The notes under the pieces were generated by a model. The model searched no databases, had not been told where the DNA came from, and was given only the letters and a program-made list of their open reading frames with translations. This document shows, piece by piece, positions 740-6,027 of a stretch of 6,071 nt of DNA. The stretch lies in UHGV virus genome UHGV-0378151. The stretch is one strand, 5' to 3'. Origin of the DNA: a virus. Position 1 is the stretch's first letter. Each line of letters starts with the position of its first letter. Position numbers and translations under genes: made by a program.

Positions 740-1210
740 TGGTTCGGCAACATTGTAAGGGAGGACGAAAAAGACAAGGATTTGCCGGAGAAGGTTGCGG
801 CTGAAATCCCCGTAATTATCCGTCGCTTGCTGGCTAATTTTGCCGACCCTGAAAAGGCACGGGCTTTATTACTGGAACAGCGCGACGGTGATGAAGCACT
901 GGCGATAAAGCAACAGACGGATCCGGTTATTGAGTTTTGCCAGTTCCTGAATTTTCTGGAGGAAGCGCGCGGCCTGATGATGGGTGGCGGTGGCGATTCC
1001 GTGAAGTACACGACCAGAAACAGCCTTTACCGCGTCTATCTGGCGTTTATGGCATACGCAGGCAGGAGCAAACCGCTAAACGTGGCTGAGTTCAGCAAGG
1101 CCATGAAGCCAGCGGCAAAAGTTTACGGACATGAATATATTACGCGGAGAGTTAAGGGAGTAACGCAGACCAACGCAATTACAACTGATGATTGTGACGC
1201 GTTTTTATAA
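419..1210 (+). CDS. Primase C-terminal domain ORF; only 741-1210 is primase-like, the first ~108 codons are antisense to the minus-strand ATPase core (likely chimeric or disrupted gene)
   Basis: ORF track 419-1210. From 741 it reads ...NIVREDEKDKDLPEKVAAEIPVIIRRLLANFADPEKARALLLEQRDGDE...DCDAFL, continuing exactly where the minus-strand fragment stops being homologous. No in-frame ATG or GTG exists between 741 and about 975. Iterons follow immediately downstream, as expected after a P4-type primase gene. Confidence 0.55.
   Translation: MCECTFTATALSGGLNKHLPVVPVRHNHVQRGTYTHHLARVFSGCVLKPFMKVWRVIADVLPWCWWRVLNAVVRGDPVLRRVRGKFPRFQVKRTIGERQQIAGRLAHWFGNIVREDEKDKDLPEKVAAEIPVIIRRLLANFADPEKARALLLEQRDGDEALAIKQQTDPVIEFCQFLNFLEEARGLMMGGGGDSVKYTTRNSLYRVYLAFMAYAGRSKPLNVAEFSKAMKPAAKVYGHEYITRRVKGVTQTNAITTDDCDAFL
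741..857. repeat. Right copy of 117-bp inverted repeat
   Basis: Reverse complement matches 1-117 with 2 mismatches; one is synonymous (GTT/GTC Val), one changes Gly to Asp. Confidence 0.9.
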
Positions 1211-1224
1211 TTTTTTGTAAAAGT

Positions 1225-1448
1225 CCTCTACCCCATCCACCTGAATGAAATAAACGCATATTATTCAACATGATAAGTGGGTAGAGGGCTAGGTAGAAGG
1301 CTAATAAAACCTCTCTACCTCTTCTACCATGATTAAGATCGTTTGTGAGGGGCGGGTAGAGGATGGGTAGAGGGCCACGAAAGCCCTCTACCCATCTGAA
1401 AGCCGCGCCATTACTGACATGAAAGATGATTAGGTAGAGAGGTAGAGG
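1225..1448. repeat. Iteron array, putative origin of replication
   Basis: About 10 copies of GGTAGAGG or near variants in both orientations: direct at 1280, 1292, 1355, 1366, 1433, 1441; inverted CCTCTACC at 1225, 1312, 1321, 1385. Includes an inverted pair GGGTAGAGGGC / GCCCTCTACCC at 1365-1393. Non-coding, directly after the primase stop at 1210. Confidence 0.7.
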
Positions 1449-1496
1449 AGGTGCACCACAACCTAAAACTTTTTAAACACGAGAGTAAAAATAAAA

Positions 1497-1775
1497 ATGC
1501 ACACATCAGGAAGATTTAACAAATCACTCAAAAAACGCAAAGACAGAACAGCACCAAGATATAAAGCGCTGGAGATGACAGAGCACGCCTTAAAGGTGGC
1601 TATAAAGGTGATAGACATCACAGCGGGAGAAGGATACTCGAAAGCACATCCCGAACTAATAAGCGCATTCATGACCACGGCGGCGGCAAACTTTGCCACG
1701 CTGACAGAGCGGGAGATTGCAGAAGCGGAACAGGTAACAACCATCAACGTTAAAACCGGAGAGCAGACAGCATGA
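1497..1775 (+). CDS. Hypothetical 92-aa protein, translationally coupled to downstream SSB
   Basis: ORF track. Its TGA stop (1773-1775) overlaps the ATG (1772-1774) of the next gene as ATGA. No family recognised. Confidence 0.5.
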   Translation: MHTSGRFNKSLKKRKDRTAPRYKALEMTEHALKVAIKVIDITAGEGYSKAHPELISAFMTTAAANFATLTEREIAEAEQVTTINVKTGEQTA

Positions 1776-2182
1776 CAGCACAGATAGCGGCTTACGGGCG
1801 GCTGGTGGACGACCCGCAGGTAAAACAGACCAGCAAGGGCACACCAATGACGCTGGCACGTATGGCGGTATCGTTGCCATGTAGTCAGGCGCAGGATGGG
1901 CAGGCTACGTTATGGCTATCGGTGATGGCATTTGGTAAGCAGGCCGACTTCCTGGCTAAACATCAAAAAGGCGACGTTGCCAGCGTATCCGGCACGATGC
2001 AGGTCAGCCAGTGGACCGGACAGAACGGGGAAACGCGGCAGGGTTATCAGGTTATTGCAGACAGCGTAATCAGTGCCCGTGCGGCACGTCCTGGCGGGAA
2101 CAGACGCAAAACCACAGGCACACAGGGTAATCAGCCACCAGCGGGAGGCGATGACCCTTACGGTGATGATATTCCGTTCTGA
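1772..2182 (+). CDS. Short single-stranded DNA-binding protein (SSB family)
   Basis: 136 aa. N-terminal OB-fold pattern resembling E. coli SSB (YGRLVDDPQVK...WLSVMAFGKQADFLAKHQKGDVASVSGTMQVSQWTGQNGETR), a Gly/Pro/Gln-rich linker, and the characteristic acidic C-terminal tip DDIPF. Confidence 0.8.
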   Translation: MTAQIAAYGRLVDDPQVKQTSKGTPMTLARMAVSLPCSQAQDGQATLWLSVMAFGKQADFLAKHQKGDVASVSGTMQVSQWTGQNGETRQGYQVIADSVISARAARPGGNRRKTTGTQGNQPPAGGDDPYGDDIPF

Positions 2183-2192
2183 GGGGGTGAGG

Positions 2193-2465
2193 ATGGTACA
2201 TGACCGCATAGCGGAGGAACTCGAGGCAAAAGGCTTTTACCGGAGGGCGGCGGCACGATGGGGTGAAGTCATGCAGCTGGTGGAGACAGACAAGGAACGG
2301 CATCAGGTTACGATGCGACGGCTGGAATGTTCCAGGAAGGCACAGAGGCCACCGGAGCCGCCGGATAACTTCGGAGACCTGAGAAAGGCAGTCGATCGCA
2401 CTTATGCTGAAATGGGTATAGATGGTGTAAGCGATGAAATATGGCGTAATTACCCAGGCAGCTAA
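2193..2465 (+). CDS. PerC-family-like small transcriptional regulator
   Basis: MVHDRIAEELEAKGFYRRAAARWGEVM... resembles the conserved N-terminal motif of PerC/Pch-type regulators as I remember it. Start taken at ATG 2193, preceded by GAGGGGG (2181-2187). The track start at 2073 would overlap the SSB 3' end in another frame. Confidence 0.55.
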   Translation: MVHDRIAEELEAKGFYRRAAARWGEVMQLVETDKERHQVTMRRLECSRKAQRPPEPPDNFGDLRKAVDRTYAEMGIDGVSDEIWRNYPGS

Positions 2466-2471
2466 TCAACA

Positions 2472-2493
2472 GCCGGAGTAATCCGGCTTTTTT
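2472..2493 (+). terminator. Rho-independent terminator
   Basis: GCCGGA-GTAA-TCCGGC hairpin followed by a run of 6 T, 7 nt after the stop at 2463-2465. Confidence 0.7.
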
Positions 2494-2505
2494 GTACCCA
2501 AAAAA

Positions 2506-2542
2506 AGCCCGATAAGTACAGGAGGCATCTTATCGGGCTTTT
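2506..2542. terminator. Second hairpin terminator, possibly bidirectional
   Basis: Perfect 11-bp stem AGCCCGATAAG (2506-2516) / CTTATCGGGCT (2529-2539) with a 12-nt loop, an A7 run upstream and T-run downstream. Confidence 0.55.
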
Positions 2543-2621
2543 GCATATGAGGTTTTTTTTGGCGCACTGACACACATGATCGGGATCATCATTTCATAAT
2601 TTGCAACACAACTCAACATCA

Positions 2622-2670
2622 TTGCATAAAATGCAATCATGATTATAATCAGATCTGGATGAACATCCAG
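2622..2670 (+). promoter_or_regulatory. Putative sigma70-type promoter with overlapping palindromic operator-like sites, upstream of the capsid operon
   Basis: TTGCAT (2622-2627), 16-bp spacer, TATAAT (2644-2649). Palindromes: TTGCAT-AAA-ATGCAA (2622-2636), perfect 12-bp TGATTATAATCA (2640-2651) over the -10, and CTGGATG-AA-CATCCAG (2655-2670) near the predicted start. SD AAGAGGA at 2689-2695 before ATG 2706. Confidence 0.45.
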
Positions 2671-2705
2671 TTATGATTTTTTAAGTCAAAGAGGAATTTC
2701 TTACT

Positions 2706-2912
2706 ATGGCTGAAGAGAAAAAAGGCGGTGTTTCGGTGTACATAAGCCCCGACATCGTGAAGGCGCTCAAGGAACGCCACCAGCAGAACGTAAAAGCAGG
2801 CATTGCGGCAGGACTTGATCCGCTGGCGATGGTTGAGCCGTCAACAGGCTGGCAGGTACGCGCCTATTTACGCGCGGCGCTGGGTATGAATCAGGTTCAC
2901 GGGGGTGAATAA
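2706..2912 (+). CDS. Hypothetical 68-aa protein, first gene of capsid operon (possible ribbon-helix-helix fold)
   Basis: ORF track. Its TAA stop overlaps the capsid gene ATG as TAATG at 2910-2914. The segment VSVYISPDIVKALKERHQQ has a strand-then-helix pattern, but this is only a guess. Confidence 0.5.
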   Translation: MAEEKKGGVSVYISPDIVKALKERHQQNVKAGIAAGLDPLAMVEPSTGWQVRAYLRAALGMNQVHGGE

Positions 2913-3967
2913 TGACAGTAAAAGCAATATCACTTAACACTAACCAGCTTTTTGCGTACCTGAATCGCGAGGATATTGCGGAATTTAAATTCAGTCCGCT
3001 GTTTACCGCGCTGTTTTTCCCGAACGTGGCGACATTCAACACACAGGACATCATGTTAGATAACCTGGATATTGAAGAAGTCACTATGTCGGCGTTTTGT
3101 TCGCCTATGGTGGGTAGCCAGGTTCAGCGCGATAAAGGGTACGAAACAAGCATTATTCGCCCTGGCTACATGAAGCCAAAACACGAAATCGATCCATTAA
3201 AAACAATAATGCGCATGGCTGGAGAAGATCCAGCACAGCTTAACGACCCTACCTACCGCCGTATGCGCCTGATTACTGGCAACATGCGCCGCCAGATAAA
3301 CGCCATTAAAGCGCGCGTGGAATGGCTGGCGGTAAATGCGGTAACGACCGGAAAAAACATCATTGAGGGCGAAGGCATAGAGCGCTATGAAATCGACTGG
3401 AAGATACCGGAAAAAAACATCATAGAGCAGGCCGACGGTAAAAAATGGTCAGAGCAGGACAAAGACATACACGACCCAATCTATGACATTGAGCTATACG
3501 CAGATCAGGCAGGTTGCCCCGCAAACGTCATGATTATGGGCGTTGATGTATGGCGCATGTTACGCAGCTTTAAAAAATTCCGTGAACTGTACGATCTCTC
3601 CCGTGGTTCAGAATCCGCCGCAGAGCTGGCATGTAAAAACCTGGGAGAAGTGGTGAGCTTTAAAGGCTATCTTGGTGATCTGGCCCTTATCGTCTATTCC
3701 GGCAAATACACTGACAGCGACGGCACAGAAAAATATTTCCTTGAGCCTGATTTGCTGGTCCTGGGCAACACCAACAATAAAGGGCTGGTGGCCTATGGTG
3801 CGATTATGGAACAGGAAGCGGTAAGAACGGGCGCAACGCAAAACATGTTTTACCCGAAAAACTGGATTGAAGACGGCGATCCGGCGATTGAGTACGTGCA
3901 GACACACAGCGCACCGCAGCCTGTTCCGGCAGATATTCGCAAATTTGTTACCGTCAAAATTGGTTAA
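2912..3967 (+). CDS. Major capsid protein, lambda gpE family
   Basis: 351 aa, colinear with lambda gpE as I recall it: FKFSPLF..LFF, RPGYMKPKHEIDP, EDPAQLNDPTYRRMRLI, WRMLRSFK, SFKGYLGDLALIVYSGKY, LVLGNT, YPKNWIEDGDPA, and a SAP...KI C-terminus. Similar length to gpE (341 aa). Confidence 0.9.
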   Translation: MTVKAISLNTNQLFAYLNREDIAEFKFSPLFTALFFPNVATFNTQDIMLDNLDIEEVTMSAFCSPMVGSQVQRDKGYETSIIRPGYMKPKHEIDPLKTIMRMAGEDPAQLNDPTYRRMRLITGNMRRQINAIKARVEWLAVNAVTTGKNIIEGEGIERYEIDWKIPEKNIIEQADGKKWSEQDKDIHDPIYDIELYADQAGCPANVMIMGVDVWRMLRSFKKFRELYDLSRGSESAAELACKNLGEVVSFKGYLGDLALIVYSGKYTDSDGTEKYFLEPDLLVLGNTNNKGLVAYGAIMEQEAVRTGATQNMFYPKNWIEDGDPAIEYVQTHSAPQPVPADIRKFVTVKIG

Positions 3968-3978
3968 CGGTGGATTCT

Positions 3979-4314
3979 ATGAACACTCCATACATTGAGT
4001 TATTTGCAGGCAGTCAGCAGGTATCAACGACGCTGGTACATTTTGCCGCTGATGCTGGCGTTATTCAGGAATTTACCCCGCTGATGCTGGCGGACAATGG
4101 CGAGTTTAAGCCGTGGGATGGTCAGGAATCTGGCAAGGCTGTTTATCTGACCTCGTACCCCGTTGACACGTCGACGCAGAAATCAGCACAGTGCTATAAG
4201 ACGGGGATATTCAATATCGCCGCCGTTAACTGGCCTGAGAGCGTCGACACCGATGCGAAAAAATGCGCCGCCTTTGCGGGTTCTGGCGTATCCGTTCAGC
4301 CGCTGGCCCGATAA
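3979..4314 (+). CDS. Head decoration protein, lambda gpD family
   Basis: TPLMLADNGEFKPWDGQESGKAVYL...CYKTGIFNIAAVNWPESVDTDAKKCAAFAGSGVSV matches lambda gpD [27 protein letters not shown]...[35 protein letters not shown]. ATG 3979 preferred; the in-frame GTG at 3970 used by the track is an alternative. Confidence 0.85.
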   Translation: MNTPYIELFAGSQQVSTTLVHFAADAGVIQEFTPLMLADNGEFKPWDGQESGKAVYLTSYPVDTSTQKSAQCYKTGIFNIAAVNWPESVDTDAKKCAAFAGSGVSVQPLAR

Positions 4315-4326
4315 GCAGGGGGAACG

Positions 4327-4740
4327 ATGGCAACGAATGAAAGCATCATGGCGCTACCGCTGGCGAGTAAATTTAAAGCCGAAGCGCGGGCAATGGCTGA
4401 CAGAGGGTTATCAACCTACGAGGCCGTATATCAACTCAACAAACTGGAAGAACAGGACAAGCCGCGCGCTGATGCGATTATGGCGCTTCATGAACATAAC
4501 GACTATCAGCCGCTGTTACGTGCAATGGCAAACGTGCCATGTATTAGCGTCGATAATGCTCGTGAAATCCTGAACATGACCATAGAGCAGGAGCGCCCAA
4601 AGGTTGCACCAGAGCTTACCGCAGCCTTTGAAAACTTTATGGACATGCACAGCCCGCAAGCCGTATCAGCTGGCATGGCATACGATGGCAGAAACCAGGG
4701 CGATGACGGCGACATCGATCACATACTGAAAACCATCTGA
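4327..4740 (+). CDS. Hypothetical 137-aa acidic protein, positioned where lambda has FI after the capsid gene
   Basis: ORF track. SD AGGGGGA at 4316-4322. No recognisable similarity to lambda FI or any other family; the functional guess is positional only. Confidence 0.5.
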   Translation: MATNESIMALPLASKFKAEARAMADRGLSTYEAVYQLNKLEEQDKPRADAIMALHEHNDYQPLLRAMANVPCISVDNAREILNMTIEQERPKVAPELTAAFENFMDMHSPQAVSAGMAYDGRNQGDDGDIDHILKTI

Positions 4741-4745
4741 GACAA

Positions 4746-4770
4746 GGCCGGAGAAATCCGGCTTTTTTTT
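4746..4770 (+). terminator. Rho-independent terminator
   Basis: GGCCGGA-GAAA-TCCGGC hairpin followed by T8, directly after the stop at 4738-4740. Near-identical to the hairpin at 2472-2493. Confidence 0.75.
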
Positions 4771-4947
4771 ACGGGTCCTTTCCGGCATATGGACCCGTTA
4801 CGGGGCGGCGACCTCGCGGTTTTTCGCTATTTATGAGCCTTTTCAGGGGGGTGGTGGTGGTTTTGTTGTTTGATCTATCTTTATGAATGAAAAGGGAAAG
4901 ATGCAAGCAATACACCAACCTGAAGCAGTAATTAAGTTGGTGTATTA
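4771..4947 (+). other. cos site 1 (plus orientation): lambda-type cosQ and cosN with a divergent cosB
   Basis: ACGGGTCCTTTCCGG...TTACG / GGGCGGCGACCT / CGCGG-TTTTTCGCTATTTATGA is almost base-for-base the lambda right-end/left-end junction as I recall it. The 12-nt cohesive-end sequence GGGCGGCGACCT is at 4803-4814. Downstream of about 4835 it no longer resembles lambda cosB. A perfect 9-bp inverted repeat TACACCAAC (4911-4919) / GTTGGTGTA (4936-4944) ends 3 nt before the ATG. Confidence 0.8.
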
Positions 4948-5490
4948 ATGAAATCTCATCTGATGAACAAAAAAAACATGGCGAAAAGCTGCCGTGTAAG
5001 TGCGACAGCGTTCGACAAGTGGGGAGTAACTCCCGTTGAGCGTAAAGGCCGTGAGGCGTTTTATGATGTTGCCAGCGTGATAGAAAATAGGGTTAACAAT
5101 GCAATTAGCCAGCTTATAAACGACAAAGGCGAGATTGACGATGATGAACTTTTACGAGTCAGGATCAGATTACTGACAGCACAGGCAGAGGCGCAGGAAC
5201 TTAAAAACGATCGCGATCGCGGTGACGTGATTGATACTGAGTTTTGCCTGTACGCGCTTTCAAAGCTGGCGAGTCAGATTTCATCAATCATGGACAGCCT
5301 CCCGCTTACTATGCAAAGGAGCTTCCCACAGATTACCCCCGCCATGCTGGATAGGCTTAAAAGGGAAGTGGTTAAAGCCTGTAATGCCAGTGCCAGAGTT
5401 GCCGACAACCTCCCACAGATACTGGCTGATTACTTGAAAGAAACAACCGGAAACGTACCGGAAAAGTTGCTACAGAAGAAAGGCGAGTAA
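4948..5490 (+). CDS. Terminase small subunit, lambda Nu1 family
   Basis: Colinear with lambda Nu1: N-terminal region (KSCRVSATAFDKWGV vs ADIFGASIRTIQNWQEQGM) and strongly in the C-terminal half (LTAQAEAQELKNDRDRGDVIDTEFCLYALSKLASQISSIMDSLPLTMQRSFP vs LTRAQADAQELKNARDSAEVVETAFCTFVLSRIAGEIASILDGLPLSVQRRFP). Alternative start at ATG 4963. Confidence 0.9.
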   Translation: MKSHLMNKKNMAKSCRVSATAFDKWGVTPVERKGREAFYDVASVIENRVNNAISQLINDKGEIDDDELLRVRIRLLTAQAEAQELKNDRDRGDVIDTEFCLYALSKLASQISSIMDSLPLTMQRSFPQITPAMLDRLKREVVKACNASARVADNLPQILADYLKETTGNVPEKLLQKKGE

Positions 5491-5712
5491 CAGACGCGCA
5501 ATTATTGAACAAAACTGAGAAACGACATGAAAGCGTCATAAATCGCCATTTTAGATGATTACCGTGTCGTTTCTTTTTATTGTGTATCTATTTAAAAACA
5601 AATAGTTATGTTCGAGAAGTACCGACATGCTTTTTCCAGAAAAATTTTCATAAACAGATAAAAACCGCGAGGTCGCCGCCCCGTAACGGGCCATAATTCC
5701 AGGAAGGACCCG
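5491..5712 (-). other. cos site 2 (minus orientation): lambda-type cosQ-cosN plus lambda-like cosB
   Basis: Reverse complement of 5661-5712 reads CGGGTCCTTCCTGG...CCCGTTACGGGGCGGCGACCTCGCGGTTTT, with a perfect match of about 30 bp to cos1 (4794-4823). Continuing on the minus strand, TTTATGAAAATTTTC, CATAACT and the inverted GAAACGACA (5519-5527) / TGTCGTTTC (5565-5573) motifs track lambda cosB closely. Complement of the cohesive-end 12-mer is at 5670-5681. Confidence 0.8.
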
Positions 5713-5745: not shown

Positions 5746-6027
5746 ATGACAGAAGCCGAAATACTGGGATTAATCCGCCGCGTTGCCGGAATCAGCCAGC
5801 AGGTTGACGAACAGGCCACGCAGCCGGACAGCGTGATCGCCGAAAATTACGCGCGTGTTGTTGCTGATGTGATGCGCCGTGATGGTATTGAGCTTAACGG
5901 CGTGGATATGCGCGACATACGGATCAGATTCCTTGAGTTGCTGGCCTACCGTCGCCGCGTGGAGATGTATCGGGAGAAGGAGAAAATAACGTACCACTGG
6001 AAGAAGCCGGAGCGGTTGCGGCGGTAA
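5746..6027 (+). CDS. Hypothetical 93-aa protein
   Basis: ORF track. Basic, helical-looking composition; GGGGG 4 nt upstream of the ATG. Preferred over the overlapping minus-strand ORF 5770-5997 because it is longer and follows the operon strand. No family recognised; not similar to the lambda gpA N-terminus. Confidence 0.45.
   Translation: MTEAEILGLIRRVAGISQQVDEQATQPDSVIAENYARVVADVMRRDGIELNGVDMRDIRIRFLELLAYRRRVEMYREKEKITYHWKKPERLRR

Follow-up and report, generated by a model that had tools for sequence, protein, structure and literature searches.

Introduction

Published work on EcCICFT073, the model phage-inducible chromosomal island (PICI) of Gram-negative bacteria, deals with the induction of alpA, replication, packaging by way of cos, and Rpp (Fillol-Salom et al. 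2018, 2019; PMC6092414, PMC6739421). We analysed a 6,071-nt stretch of viral DNA, genome UHGV-0378151, referred to as the window throughout, and in particular its positions 2193-2705, which are the junction of the replication/accessory module with the capsid/packaging operon in an island of this type. The window has the gene types and order of EcCICFT073, that is primase, origin (ori), ssb, perC, orf68 (c1498), capsid (c1499) and decoration (c1500) on to Rpp (c1503), and it differs by two lower-stem mismatches in a start-site hairpin described below and by its terS/cos segment. Judged by gene content, the window is an EcCICFT073-type PICI: annotated matching islands, CFT073 and Pfam together gave int, an alpA-type helix-turn-helix gene, a P4-family primase, an iteron ori, a packaging/capsid module and cos, the last as a match of the window to phage 21 cos, in an island of ~11 kb next to a tRNA or host gene. 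The island type, perC, the capsid genes, cos and Rpp are already known. In the literature we found no description of the capsid-operon promoter, terminators, operators or LexA control in Gram-negative PICIs; three papers name both EcCICFT073 and LexA, each of them once, and the LexA occurrence in PMC6092414 is a reference-list citation of the paper on operon I of the pathogenicity islands found in Staphylococcus aureus (SaPIs).

By analogy of function, SaPI operon I appears to be the closest counterpart of the operon described here. LexA reportedly controls this operon in Staphylococcus aureus, a result attributed to Ubeda et al. in 2007. It is likewise a satellite packaging/capsid-morphogenesis operon that has its own promoter with a host LexA box and is SOS-coupled like the helper prophages. 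It differs in its Gram-positive host, its LexA consensus and its unrelated sequences, and the control was demonstrated there whereas it is predicted here. Unlike SaPI operon I, the window promoter has extra dyads and an embedded terminator-like hairpin, and transcriptome data from O157 showed no SOS induction.

Colicin promoters offer a further comparison, and are said to be double-locked by LexA and a second repressor (IscR/AsnC), as ascribed to Butala et al. in 2012. There too the -10 element is closely followed by a LexA box, and the second protein makes LexA cleavage necessary but not sufficient. These promoters differ in having two overlapping LexA boxes and another motif for the second regulator, and the likeness is one of analogy only. 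Lambda PR'-qut-tR' and the Ogr/Delta-activated P4 promoter Psid are likewise promoters that lead into morphogenesis genes and have a terminator-like element on their downstream side.

A proposed insulated promoter with two kinds of operator

A preliminary description of this DNA, made from the sequence, had proposed that a PerC-like regulator, a double terminator and a palindrome-rich promoter control entry into the capsid operon, which would be repressed until a specific signal arrived, possibly a helper-phage late activator. The structural part of that proposal was borne out. A PerC-like gene closes the replication block and is followed by two hairpin terminators, a consensus -10 lies inside a perfect 12-bp palindrome, and there is one inverted repeat at the -35 (2622-2636) and another around the predicted start (2655-2670). 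Of the proposed control, an insulated module boundary with its own operator-laden promoter was retained, and the roles given to PerC and to a helper late activator were not. Because the start palindrome fits a LexA box and the -35 repeat is one of two dyads of fixed geometry, the signal is more likely to be SOS together with a dyad-binding protein. Our full model is that of an insulated capsid-operon promoter under double operator control by LexA and the dyads, and we assign it a probability of roughly one half. The features of the junction are as follows.

2193-2465, + strand: perC-family gene, 90 aa (Pfam PF06069)
Between perC and orf68: non-coding junction, 240 bp
2471-2494, + strand: T1, canonical intrinsic terminator found by the terminator scan, stem 2471-2488, then TTTTTT
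2500-2545: T2, bidirectional-looking terminator found by inverted-repeat search and fold, arms 2503-2516 and 2529-2542
2576-2589: inverted repeat ATGATC-GG-GATCAT
2592-2606: dyad 1, TTTCATAATTTGCAA (TTKCA-N5-TGCAA), centre at about -57
2622-2636: dyad 2, TTGCATAAAATGCAA, centre at about -27, overlapping the -35 and the spacer in an operator-like position
2622-2649, + strand: predicted sigma-70 promoter, -35 TTGCAT at 2622-2627, 16-bp spacer, -10 TATAAT at 2644-2649
2640-2651: perfect 12-bp palindrome TGATTATAATCA, enclosing the -10
2647-2682, + strand: T3, extended hairpin found by inverted-repeat search and fold, arms 2647-2660 and 2665-2678, then T6
2653-2672: predicted LexA SOS-box-like operator ATCTGGATGAACATCCAGTT (CTG-N10-CAG), about -3 to +17, found with the LexA matrix
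2655-2670: inverted repeat CTGGATGAACATCCAG at the predicted start, extendable to 2647-2678, found by inverted-repeat search
2691-2694, + strand: Shine-Dalgarno GAGG preceding orf68
2706-2912, + strand: orf68, 68 aa, first gene of the capsid/packaging operon (phrog_3255)

The junction was compared over 84 loci, consisting of 80 IMG/VR loci found with the capsid protein and four annotated E. coli loci, and alignment statistics were taken over 52 distinct sequences. More distant relatives were found via orf68 homologues, namely one Salmonella island, one Pluralibacter island and one metagenome contig whose junction is near the E. coli type. A capsid-protein search of genome contigs yielded no confirmed loci. 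The CFT073 junction has the same T1, T2, dyads, -10 and promoter, together with a perfect 32-bp palindrome. The conserved blocks of the junction were dyad 1 (TTTCATAATTTGCAA), dyad 2 (TTGCAYAAAATGCAA), GATTATAATCA, CTGGATGAACATCCAG, the T-run and the ribosome-binding site.

A predicted LexA-type box over the predicted start site

The enterobacterial SOS box reads CTG-N10-CAG with an A/T-rich centre. The site at 2653-2672 was scored by heterology index with a matrix made from 19 published K-12 LexA boxes, 11 of which were found exactly in MG1655 promoters (recA, lexA twice, uvrB, sulA, umuDC, recN three times, ruvAB and dinB). The window 20-mer had an index of 8.7-9.1 and ranked first by a wide margin among the sites of the window, ahead of one at 13.3. 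CFT073 has the most frequent E. coli variant, AACTGGATGAACATCCAGTT, which scored 5.9, and 83 of the 84 loci lay between 4.4 and 8.7, the exception having a 1-bp insertion. For comparison, the median for true K-12 boxes scored leave-one-out was 6.7 and their highest value 13. In random 20-mers, an index of 9 or less occurred at ~2e-6 per position, or ~1e-3 per 150-bp region.

The core of the site, CTGGAT....ATCCAG, is that of the ruvAB box (CTGGATATCTATCCAG, CGCTGGATATCTATCCAGCA), from which it differs at three central positions. The ruvAB and other chromosomal LexA operators share with it the CTG-N10-CAG form and G at position 6, and its overlap with the start is found in many SOS genes; the central bases set it apart from the ruvAB box, and the window site is a prediction from sequence. 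The core is retained in the Salmonella island (CTGGATAAATATCCAG) and, 11 bp further downstream, in the Pluralibacter island (CTGGATGTTTGTCCAG). Relative to the predicted start, the site would cover about -3 to +17 in E. coli and in Salmonella, and in Pluralibacter about +9 to +28, a placement suited to occluding the promoter. The variable columns were exactly those flanking the CTG-N10-CAG core, and the natural variants ATACAG and CTGGATAAAC, which break or alter hairpin pairs, move nearer to the LexA consensus. The CTGGAT and ATCCAG arms were kept at the sequence level in three genera, while the stem of terminator T2 had drifted completely, which argues for a protein site. The LexA box is on this basis a strong prediction from sequence, one that transcriptome data from a single relative do not bear out.

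FadR was considered for the CTGG...CCAG palindrome and rejected, the spacing being N5 rather than N8. Outside the window, two related loci (L002, 4742-4761; L003, 3091-3110) have a second such LexA-like site, AGCTGTACAGAAAACCAGTA, whose heterology index is 8.8; it overlaps the integrase gene at its 3' end and lies upstream of both a small open reading frame (ORF) and an alpA-type gene.

Two dyads at a fixed distance

Within the window the two dyads were the sole matches to TTGCA-N5-TGCAA at one mismatch or fewer, against 0.18 expected per 6 kb; each of two other whole islands had one further 1-mismatch match elsewhere. Dyad 1 was nearly invariant among E. coli relatives. The dyad centres lay 45 and 15 bp upstream of the first -10 base, exactly 30 bp apart, in E. 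coli, Salmonella and Pluralibacter. No paired TTGCA-N5-TGCAA sites were present in lambda or in the CFT073 lambdoid prophage. The dyads may resemble CytR octamers (GTTGCATT), of which the Pluralibacter relative has perfect copies. LysR-type T-N11-A sites, ArgR, MetR, Fur, CII and sigma-54 were likewise considered as candidate binders, and spacing or core would differ for most of them. RgdR was set aside as the regulator: this DUF4222 protein, which is encoded upstream of the primase, shows only non-specific DNA binding.

A candidate for the binder is the product of orf68, the one small protein always linked to the promoter, including in the Salmonella and Pluralibacter islands with their different replication modules. 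Its family is narrow and enterobacterial, and its PHROGs match, phrog_3255, has no annotated function. The best-conserved part is an N-terminal GGVSVYISPDIV stretch, and the AlphaFold model has a beta-alpha-alpha (strand-helix-helix) order at a predicted local distance difference test score (pLDDT) of 73. Faint matches to the ribbon-helix-helix (RHH) family RHH_1 (E=0.13) and to BrnA antitoxin (E=0.017) were obtained for only three of 16 homologues. Pfam gave nothing for orf68, Foldseek against the PDB gave nothing at E<=1e-3, and a profile search against PDB sequences gave nothing.

These properties also bear on an account by autoregulation, in which orf68, as a possible RHH protein, binds the dyads and maybe the palindrome and keeps expression of the operon low and steady, and output rises mainly with copy number after helper-induced replication. 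Its constant linkage to the promoter, the conserved N-terminal stretch with the modelled fold order and the faint family matches would all suit such a role, as would the steady low basal level without SOS induction in the RNA-seq data. Against it, orf68 lacks a significant family, fold or PDB match, the model has modest confidence by its pLDDT, and the loop between the helices is longer than in a typical RHH protein. We regard autoregulation as a possibility that is rather doubtful as the sole account; it is compatible with LexA and dyad control and does not exclude it.

A predicted promoter nested in a terminator-like hairpin

The -10 of the predicted promoter matched the consensus at six of six positions, with the start predicted at ~2656-2658, 7-8 nt after the -10. 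TTGC and GATTATAATCA were invariant or nearly so among E. coli relatives, and the layout of -35, 16-bp spacer and -10 recurs in Salmonella and Pluralibacter. The 12-bp palindrome TGATTATAATCA is conserved, which the -10 and the left arm of the downstream hairpin suffice to explain. The inverted repeat at 2576-2589 was not conserved, having a GATAAT right arm in most relatives and unrelated sequence in some, and it is probably a chance repeat. A minus-strand promoter at the palindromic -10 was rejected for want of a plausible -35. A search of Rfam at E<=1 gave nothing credible in the junction.

These observations touch on another account, that of an ordinary weak constitutive promoter whose repeats are by-products of an AT-rich promoter, an UP element or a leftover terminator. 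AT-rich promoters are rich in short palindromes, and neither the 2576-2589 repeat nor the 12-bp palindrome calls for a function of its own. The dyads and CTG-N10-CAG, however, are conserved in position and sequence in three genera while their neighbours diverge, and the LexA score falls far outside chance. We consider a plain constitutive promoter very improbable.

In relatives the start palindrome extends to AATCAnnnCTGGAT-GAAC-ATCCAGnnnTGATT with T6 directly after, and a T-run follows the stem in all three genera. The folding energies of this T3 hairpin ranged from -9.4 to -21.8 kcal/mol, the latter reached by uninterrupted 14-bp stems, and were -15 kcal/mol or lower in 26 of the 52 variants. 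The window hairpin has two lower-stem mismatches forming a 3x3 internal loop and, at -10.7 to -13 kcal/mol, is weaker than most relatives. Compensatory changes (ATAA/TTAT, ACAA/TTGT and AGGA/TCCT) and G-U pairs were seen in the lower stem only; at pair 172/194 there were 21 UA, three CG, two GC, three UG and 23 mismatches. A transcript from the predicted start would keep a 5' end that folds no better than shuffled sequence (z=-0.14). T3 has the look of an intrinsic terminator that would act on transcripts coming from upstream, and may be a third insulation layer nested around the promoter.

The same hairpin could be all there is to the start palindrome: it would act as a third terminator or attenuator in RNA, the LexA-like score would be coincidental, and termination would be suppressed or the embedded promoter used. 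About half of the relatives indeed have an uninterrupted 14-bp stem with a T-run at -17 to -22 kcal/mol, and the compensatory and G-U changes, the T-run in three genera and the lack of SOS induction in the O157 RNA-seq all fit a purely RNA role. Several observations do not: the upper-stem arms are kept across genera while the T2 stem has fully changed, natural variants break pairs yet come near the LexA consensus, the lower stem is mismatched in nearly half of the variants, the left lower arm would be missing from the transcript of the operon itself, and a LexA score this good is rare by chance in a region of this size. We judge a hairpin-only role to be rather unlikely.

Terminators that plausibly insulate the operon

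Upstream of the LexA- and dyad-controlled promoter that we propose, T1 has a 7-bp stem with five G-C pairs, a GTAA loop and T6, and folds at -12.6 kcal/mol (z=-4.0). The T1 hairpin was found 3' of whichever gene closes the upstream module, for example ssb in islands that lack perC. As separate observations, the hairpin GCCGGAGnAATCCGGC with a T-run recurs after orf137 (4744-4765), and in a perC-less locus (L091, 3600-3625) GCCGGAGnAATCCGGC follows ssb and is in turn followed by a degenerate cos-like stretch. The T1 sequence resembles a terminator reused at the boundaries of modules and may be a site of recombination.

T2 has perfect 14-bp arms around a 12-nt loop, an A-run before and TTTT after the stem on the + strand, and T7 on the - strand; it folds at -20.7 kcal/mol (z=-3.7) and was missed by the terminator scan because of the scan's loop limit of 8 nt. 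Over the 52 sequences its stems were invariant (99.7% paired) while the loop varied in sequence and length, and in Salmonella and Pluralibacter a wholly different hairpin with a T-run occupies its position. This is the pattern of a terminator, in which structure is kept and sequence drifts. T2 and the promoter region were found in all 84 loci at 85-100% identity, including the perC-less islands, which places T2 with the capsid-operon module as a part that travels with it. T1 and T2 plausibly insulate the capsid/packaging operon.

perC is a separable gene of the upstream module

The PerC match was end to end, with Pfam PF06069 at E=8.5e-45 and 151.4 bits (cut-off 22.6) over residues 1-89 of 90, and RefSeq labels the product a PerC family regulator in a strain with 100% identity. 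The gene was absent from 31 of 78 informative loci, Nissle 1917 among them, all of which retain T2 along with the promoter and operators. In 27 of the 78 it is adjacent to the junction, and in 20 (the O157 type) it is set apart by an insertion of ~360 bp. The preliminary description had cast PerC as regulator of this promoter, and such a distribution speaks against that role.

PerC and PchA-C have LEE1/ler, in the enterocyte effacement locus (LEE), as their defined target. The window gene shares with PerC of enteropathogenic E. coli and PchA-E of enterohaemorrhagic E. coli (EHEC) the same full-length Pfam match, and nothing ties this family to control of a PICI capsid operon. In Sp7 of O157 Sakai the gene right after ssb is ECs1588, annotated as a transcriptional activator (PMC5931665). 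The fold changes given for ECs1588 equal those tabulated for pchE, which identifies the O157 PICI perC as pchE; window PerC and the O157 PchE type are 91% identical. PchD and PchE do not activate LEE (PMC6265319), and in the literature the PICI PerC homologues and PchD/E are without LEE1 activation. PchE of EHEC is a regulator of curli and flagella, its targets being host genes, csgD and flagellar genes among them. On its distribution, perC seems to be a facultative accessory regulator, independently expressed, that closes the replication module, and does not seem to be part of the switch.

Published expression data

In RNA-seq of EDL933 in lysogeny broth, the sole annotated gene between ssb (Z1845) and capsid (Z1847) had 69 reads per kilobase per million mapped reads (RPKM), compared with 0 for ssb and 2 for capsid (PMC4048457). 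That gene was detected in every condition and the rest of the island was nearly silent (PMC4048457). The drop from 69 RPKM before the junction to 2 for the capsid gene fits insulation. A pchE-type gene in this position acts as a moron gene would, with a promoter of its own in the ssb-perC region. In O157:H7 strain PA20, with reads mapped to Sakai, pchE was expressed basally and fell under sulfamethoxazole-trimethoprim (SMX-TM) (PMC5931665). Since pchE is on while the capsid operon is near silent, PerC is not a sufficient activator of the promoter.

These data bear directly on the proposal that PerC binds the palindromes, or that a helper late activator fires the promoter, with the operon on only after helper infection. 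perC is adjacent in the window and its family is annotated as transcriptional activators, PICIs are helper-dependent with alpA expression needing the helper (PMC6092414), and the two conserved dyads without an assigned binder leave room for a phage-encoded protein. The promoter and operators are nevertheless the same in the islands without perC, and in O157 pchE and the capsid operon fall together on prophage induction, under SMX-TM. As for a helper activator, blastn of 2500-2712 against 50,697 phage records gave chance-level matches only, the best at E=0.02 to a virulent T1-like phage, and a direct reading of lambda PR'/qut, the Q-dependent site that was compared, gave no meaningful similarity. 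A 12-mer common to the junction and the lambda 6S region was at chance expectation, and the window hairpin begins at the start site rather than far downstream. The known helpers are lambdoid phages; late regulation in these is by Q, an antiterminator that works in cis through a promoter-proximal site of its own. The TGT-N12-ACA dyad at -55 of P2/P4 late promoters was not seen by eye at the window promoter. Control of the lambda Q type or the P4 Psid type, the sort of late control by a helper that the preliminary description envisaged, is not supported, and the helper late activator of the preliminary description is probably wrong. We find a role of PerC or a helper activator at this promoter unlikely.

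Several observations weigh against control by LexA and the dyads as well. In PA20, expression of the capsid operon (ECs1589-1593) did not change after 5 h of SMX-TM and had dropped 5-6 fold after 12 h, while recA, lexA and umuD were up 3-4 fold in the same samples (PMC5931665, with recA and lexA in its Table 2). An operon that stays flat while SOS genes rise means that loss of LexA is insufficient in this strain and condition, or that LexA is not the binder. The PA20 data are from a single strain, at 30 deg C and with SOS only mildly induced, and are not decisive. In the text of a ciprofloxacin study of EDL933, four phage-associated genes, on CP-933T and CP-933C, were down, and no CP-933C gene is mentioned among those induced. 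The promoter has a weak -35 and received no call in the consensus promoter scan, because the -35 matches the consensus at only three of six positions. Only 11 of the 19 LexA training boxes were verified, a matrix made from those 11 sites giving similar values. The lower stem of T3 has a G-A mismatch in 23 of the 52 variants, the window included, and a palindrome-correcting mutation could mimic the compensatory changes. Finally, orf68, the candidate dyad binder, is without a significant fold or family match. By analogy, a double lock of the colicin type could explain why the operon did not rise with recA and lexA.

A model for control of the capsid operon

We propose that T1 would end the perC transcript and that T2 would block further read-through. 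The operon's own sigma-70 promoter (TTGCAT-16-TATAAT, start at ~2656) would be held by two operator systems. The dyad pair, three helical turns apart, would be bound by a protein, orf68 being one candidate, with the proximal dyad covering the -35 and the spacer, and the predicted LexA-type SOS box would cover the start site. This second lock at the dyads is proposed because the operon was not SOS-induced in PA20. The SOS box would at the same time form the top of a longer hairpin with a U-run, such that transcripts from upstream hold both arms and would terminate, and transcripts starting at the promoter would begin inside the left arm and escape termination. The capsid/packaging genes would then be low in the quiescent island and released once LexA is cleaved and the second lock lifted. 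That these parts form one three-part logic element, consisting of a LexA operator, a dyad lock served by orf68 or a helper protein and a promoter nested in a terminator, is a tentative idea that we hold with considerable doubt.

Other features of the island

By megablast, the gene arrangement of the window was present in 2,205 of 5,426 complete E. coli genomes. The matching E. coli islands are ~11 kb long, begin with an integrase and an AlpA-type helix-turn-helix gene, and adjoin tRNA-Pro or cspD. DNA matches of the window to islands in many E. coli strains, Nissle included, were 88-100%, and strain S1-CAM-02-A matched at 99.8-100% identity over 741-4836. The remaining genes of the window are listed below.

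Start of the window, upstream of the iteron-rich origin: P4-family primase gene, 3' part
Between the iteron-rich origin and the SSB gene: 92-aa ORF
1772-2182: SSB gene (ssb)
2912-3967, + strand: lambda gpE-like major capsid gene (Pfam Phage_cap_E, E=3.9e-49)
3979-4314, + strand: gpD-like decoration gene (Pfam HDPD, E=3.4e-18)
4327-4740, + strand: orf137, matching the C-terminal part of phrog_53, a head-maturation protease family (E=7e-10)
4948-5490: Nu1-like small terminase gene, flanked by cos-like sequences
5746-6027: 93-aa ORF at the end of the operon

The match of orf137 to the C-terminal part of phrog_53 resembles the relation of lambda Nu3 to the C-terminal part of gpC, and the island may encode its own scaffold beside the gpE-like and gpD-like proteins. 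The 93-aa ORF (5746-6027) has the position of CFT073 c1503, the Rpp gene, a likeness by position and not by alignment. Rpp redirects the helper terminase to the island cos site (PMC6739421). Two inverted lambda/phage-21-like cos segments, at 4772-4836 and 5648-5712, flank the Nu1-like gene, and S1-CAM-02-A (L003), otherwise 99.8% identical, lacks the segment between the cos copies, which suggests deletion or inversion by recombination between them.

The iteron array at 1215-1450 consists of GGGTAGAGG-type repeats in both orientations, with a 27-nt inverted pair at 1349-1409, and follows the primase gene, an arrangement reported for PICI origins. At the start of the window, bases 1-117 repeat 741-857 in inverted orientation (98%), and 1-750 read in reverse complement as the upstream portion of the primase gene. 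With bases 1-750 inverted, the primase ORF is broken by an inversion or fold-back, which may be either an assembly chimera of two island copies or a real rearrangement.

Discussion

We found no description of the timing of capsid/packaging gene expression in Gram-negative PICIs, published work stopping at AlpA induction, replication and Rpp packaging. If LexA does not bind the start-site palindrome, the junction would be a clean example of module insulation and otherwise ordinary. Separating perC/pchE, a host-directed virulence regulator, from control of the island life cycle matters for the interpretation of pch phenotypes. The three-part element, if true, would require SOS and a second signal together for expression; it would explain why the operon is off in O157 with SOS but no productive helper, and it would represent convergence with the LexA control of SaPIs. 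CFT073, the probiotic Nissle 1917 and O157:H7 all have this junction, and the LexA box, if true, would tie satellite packaging directly to the DNA-damage signal by which lambdoid helper prophages are also induced.

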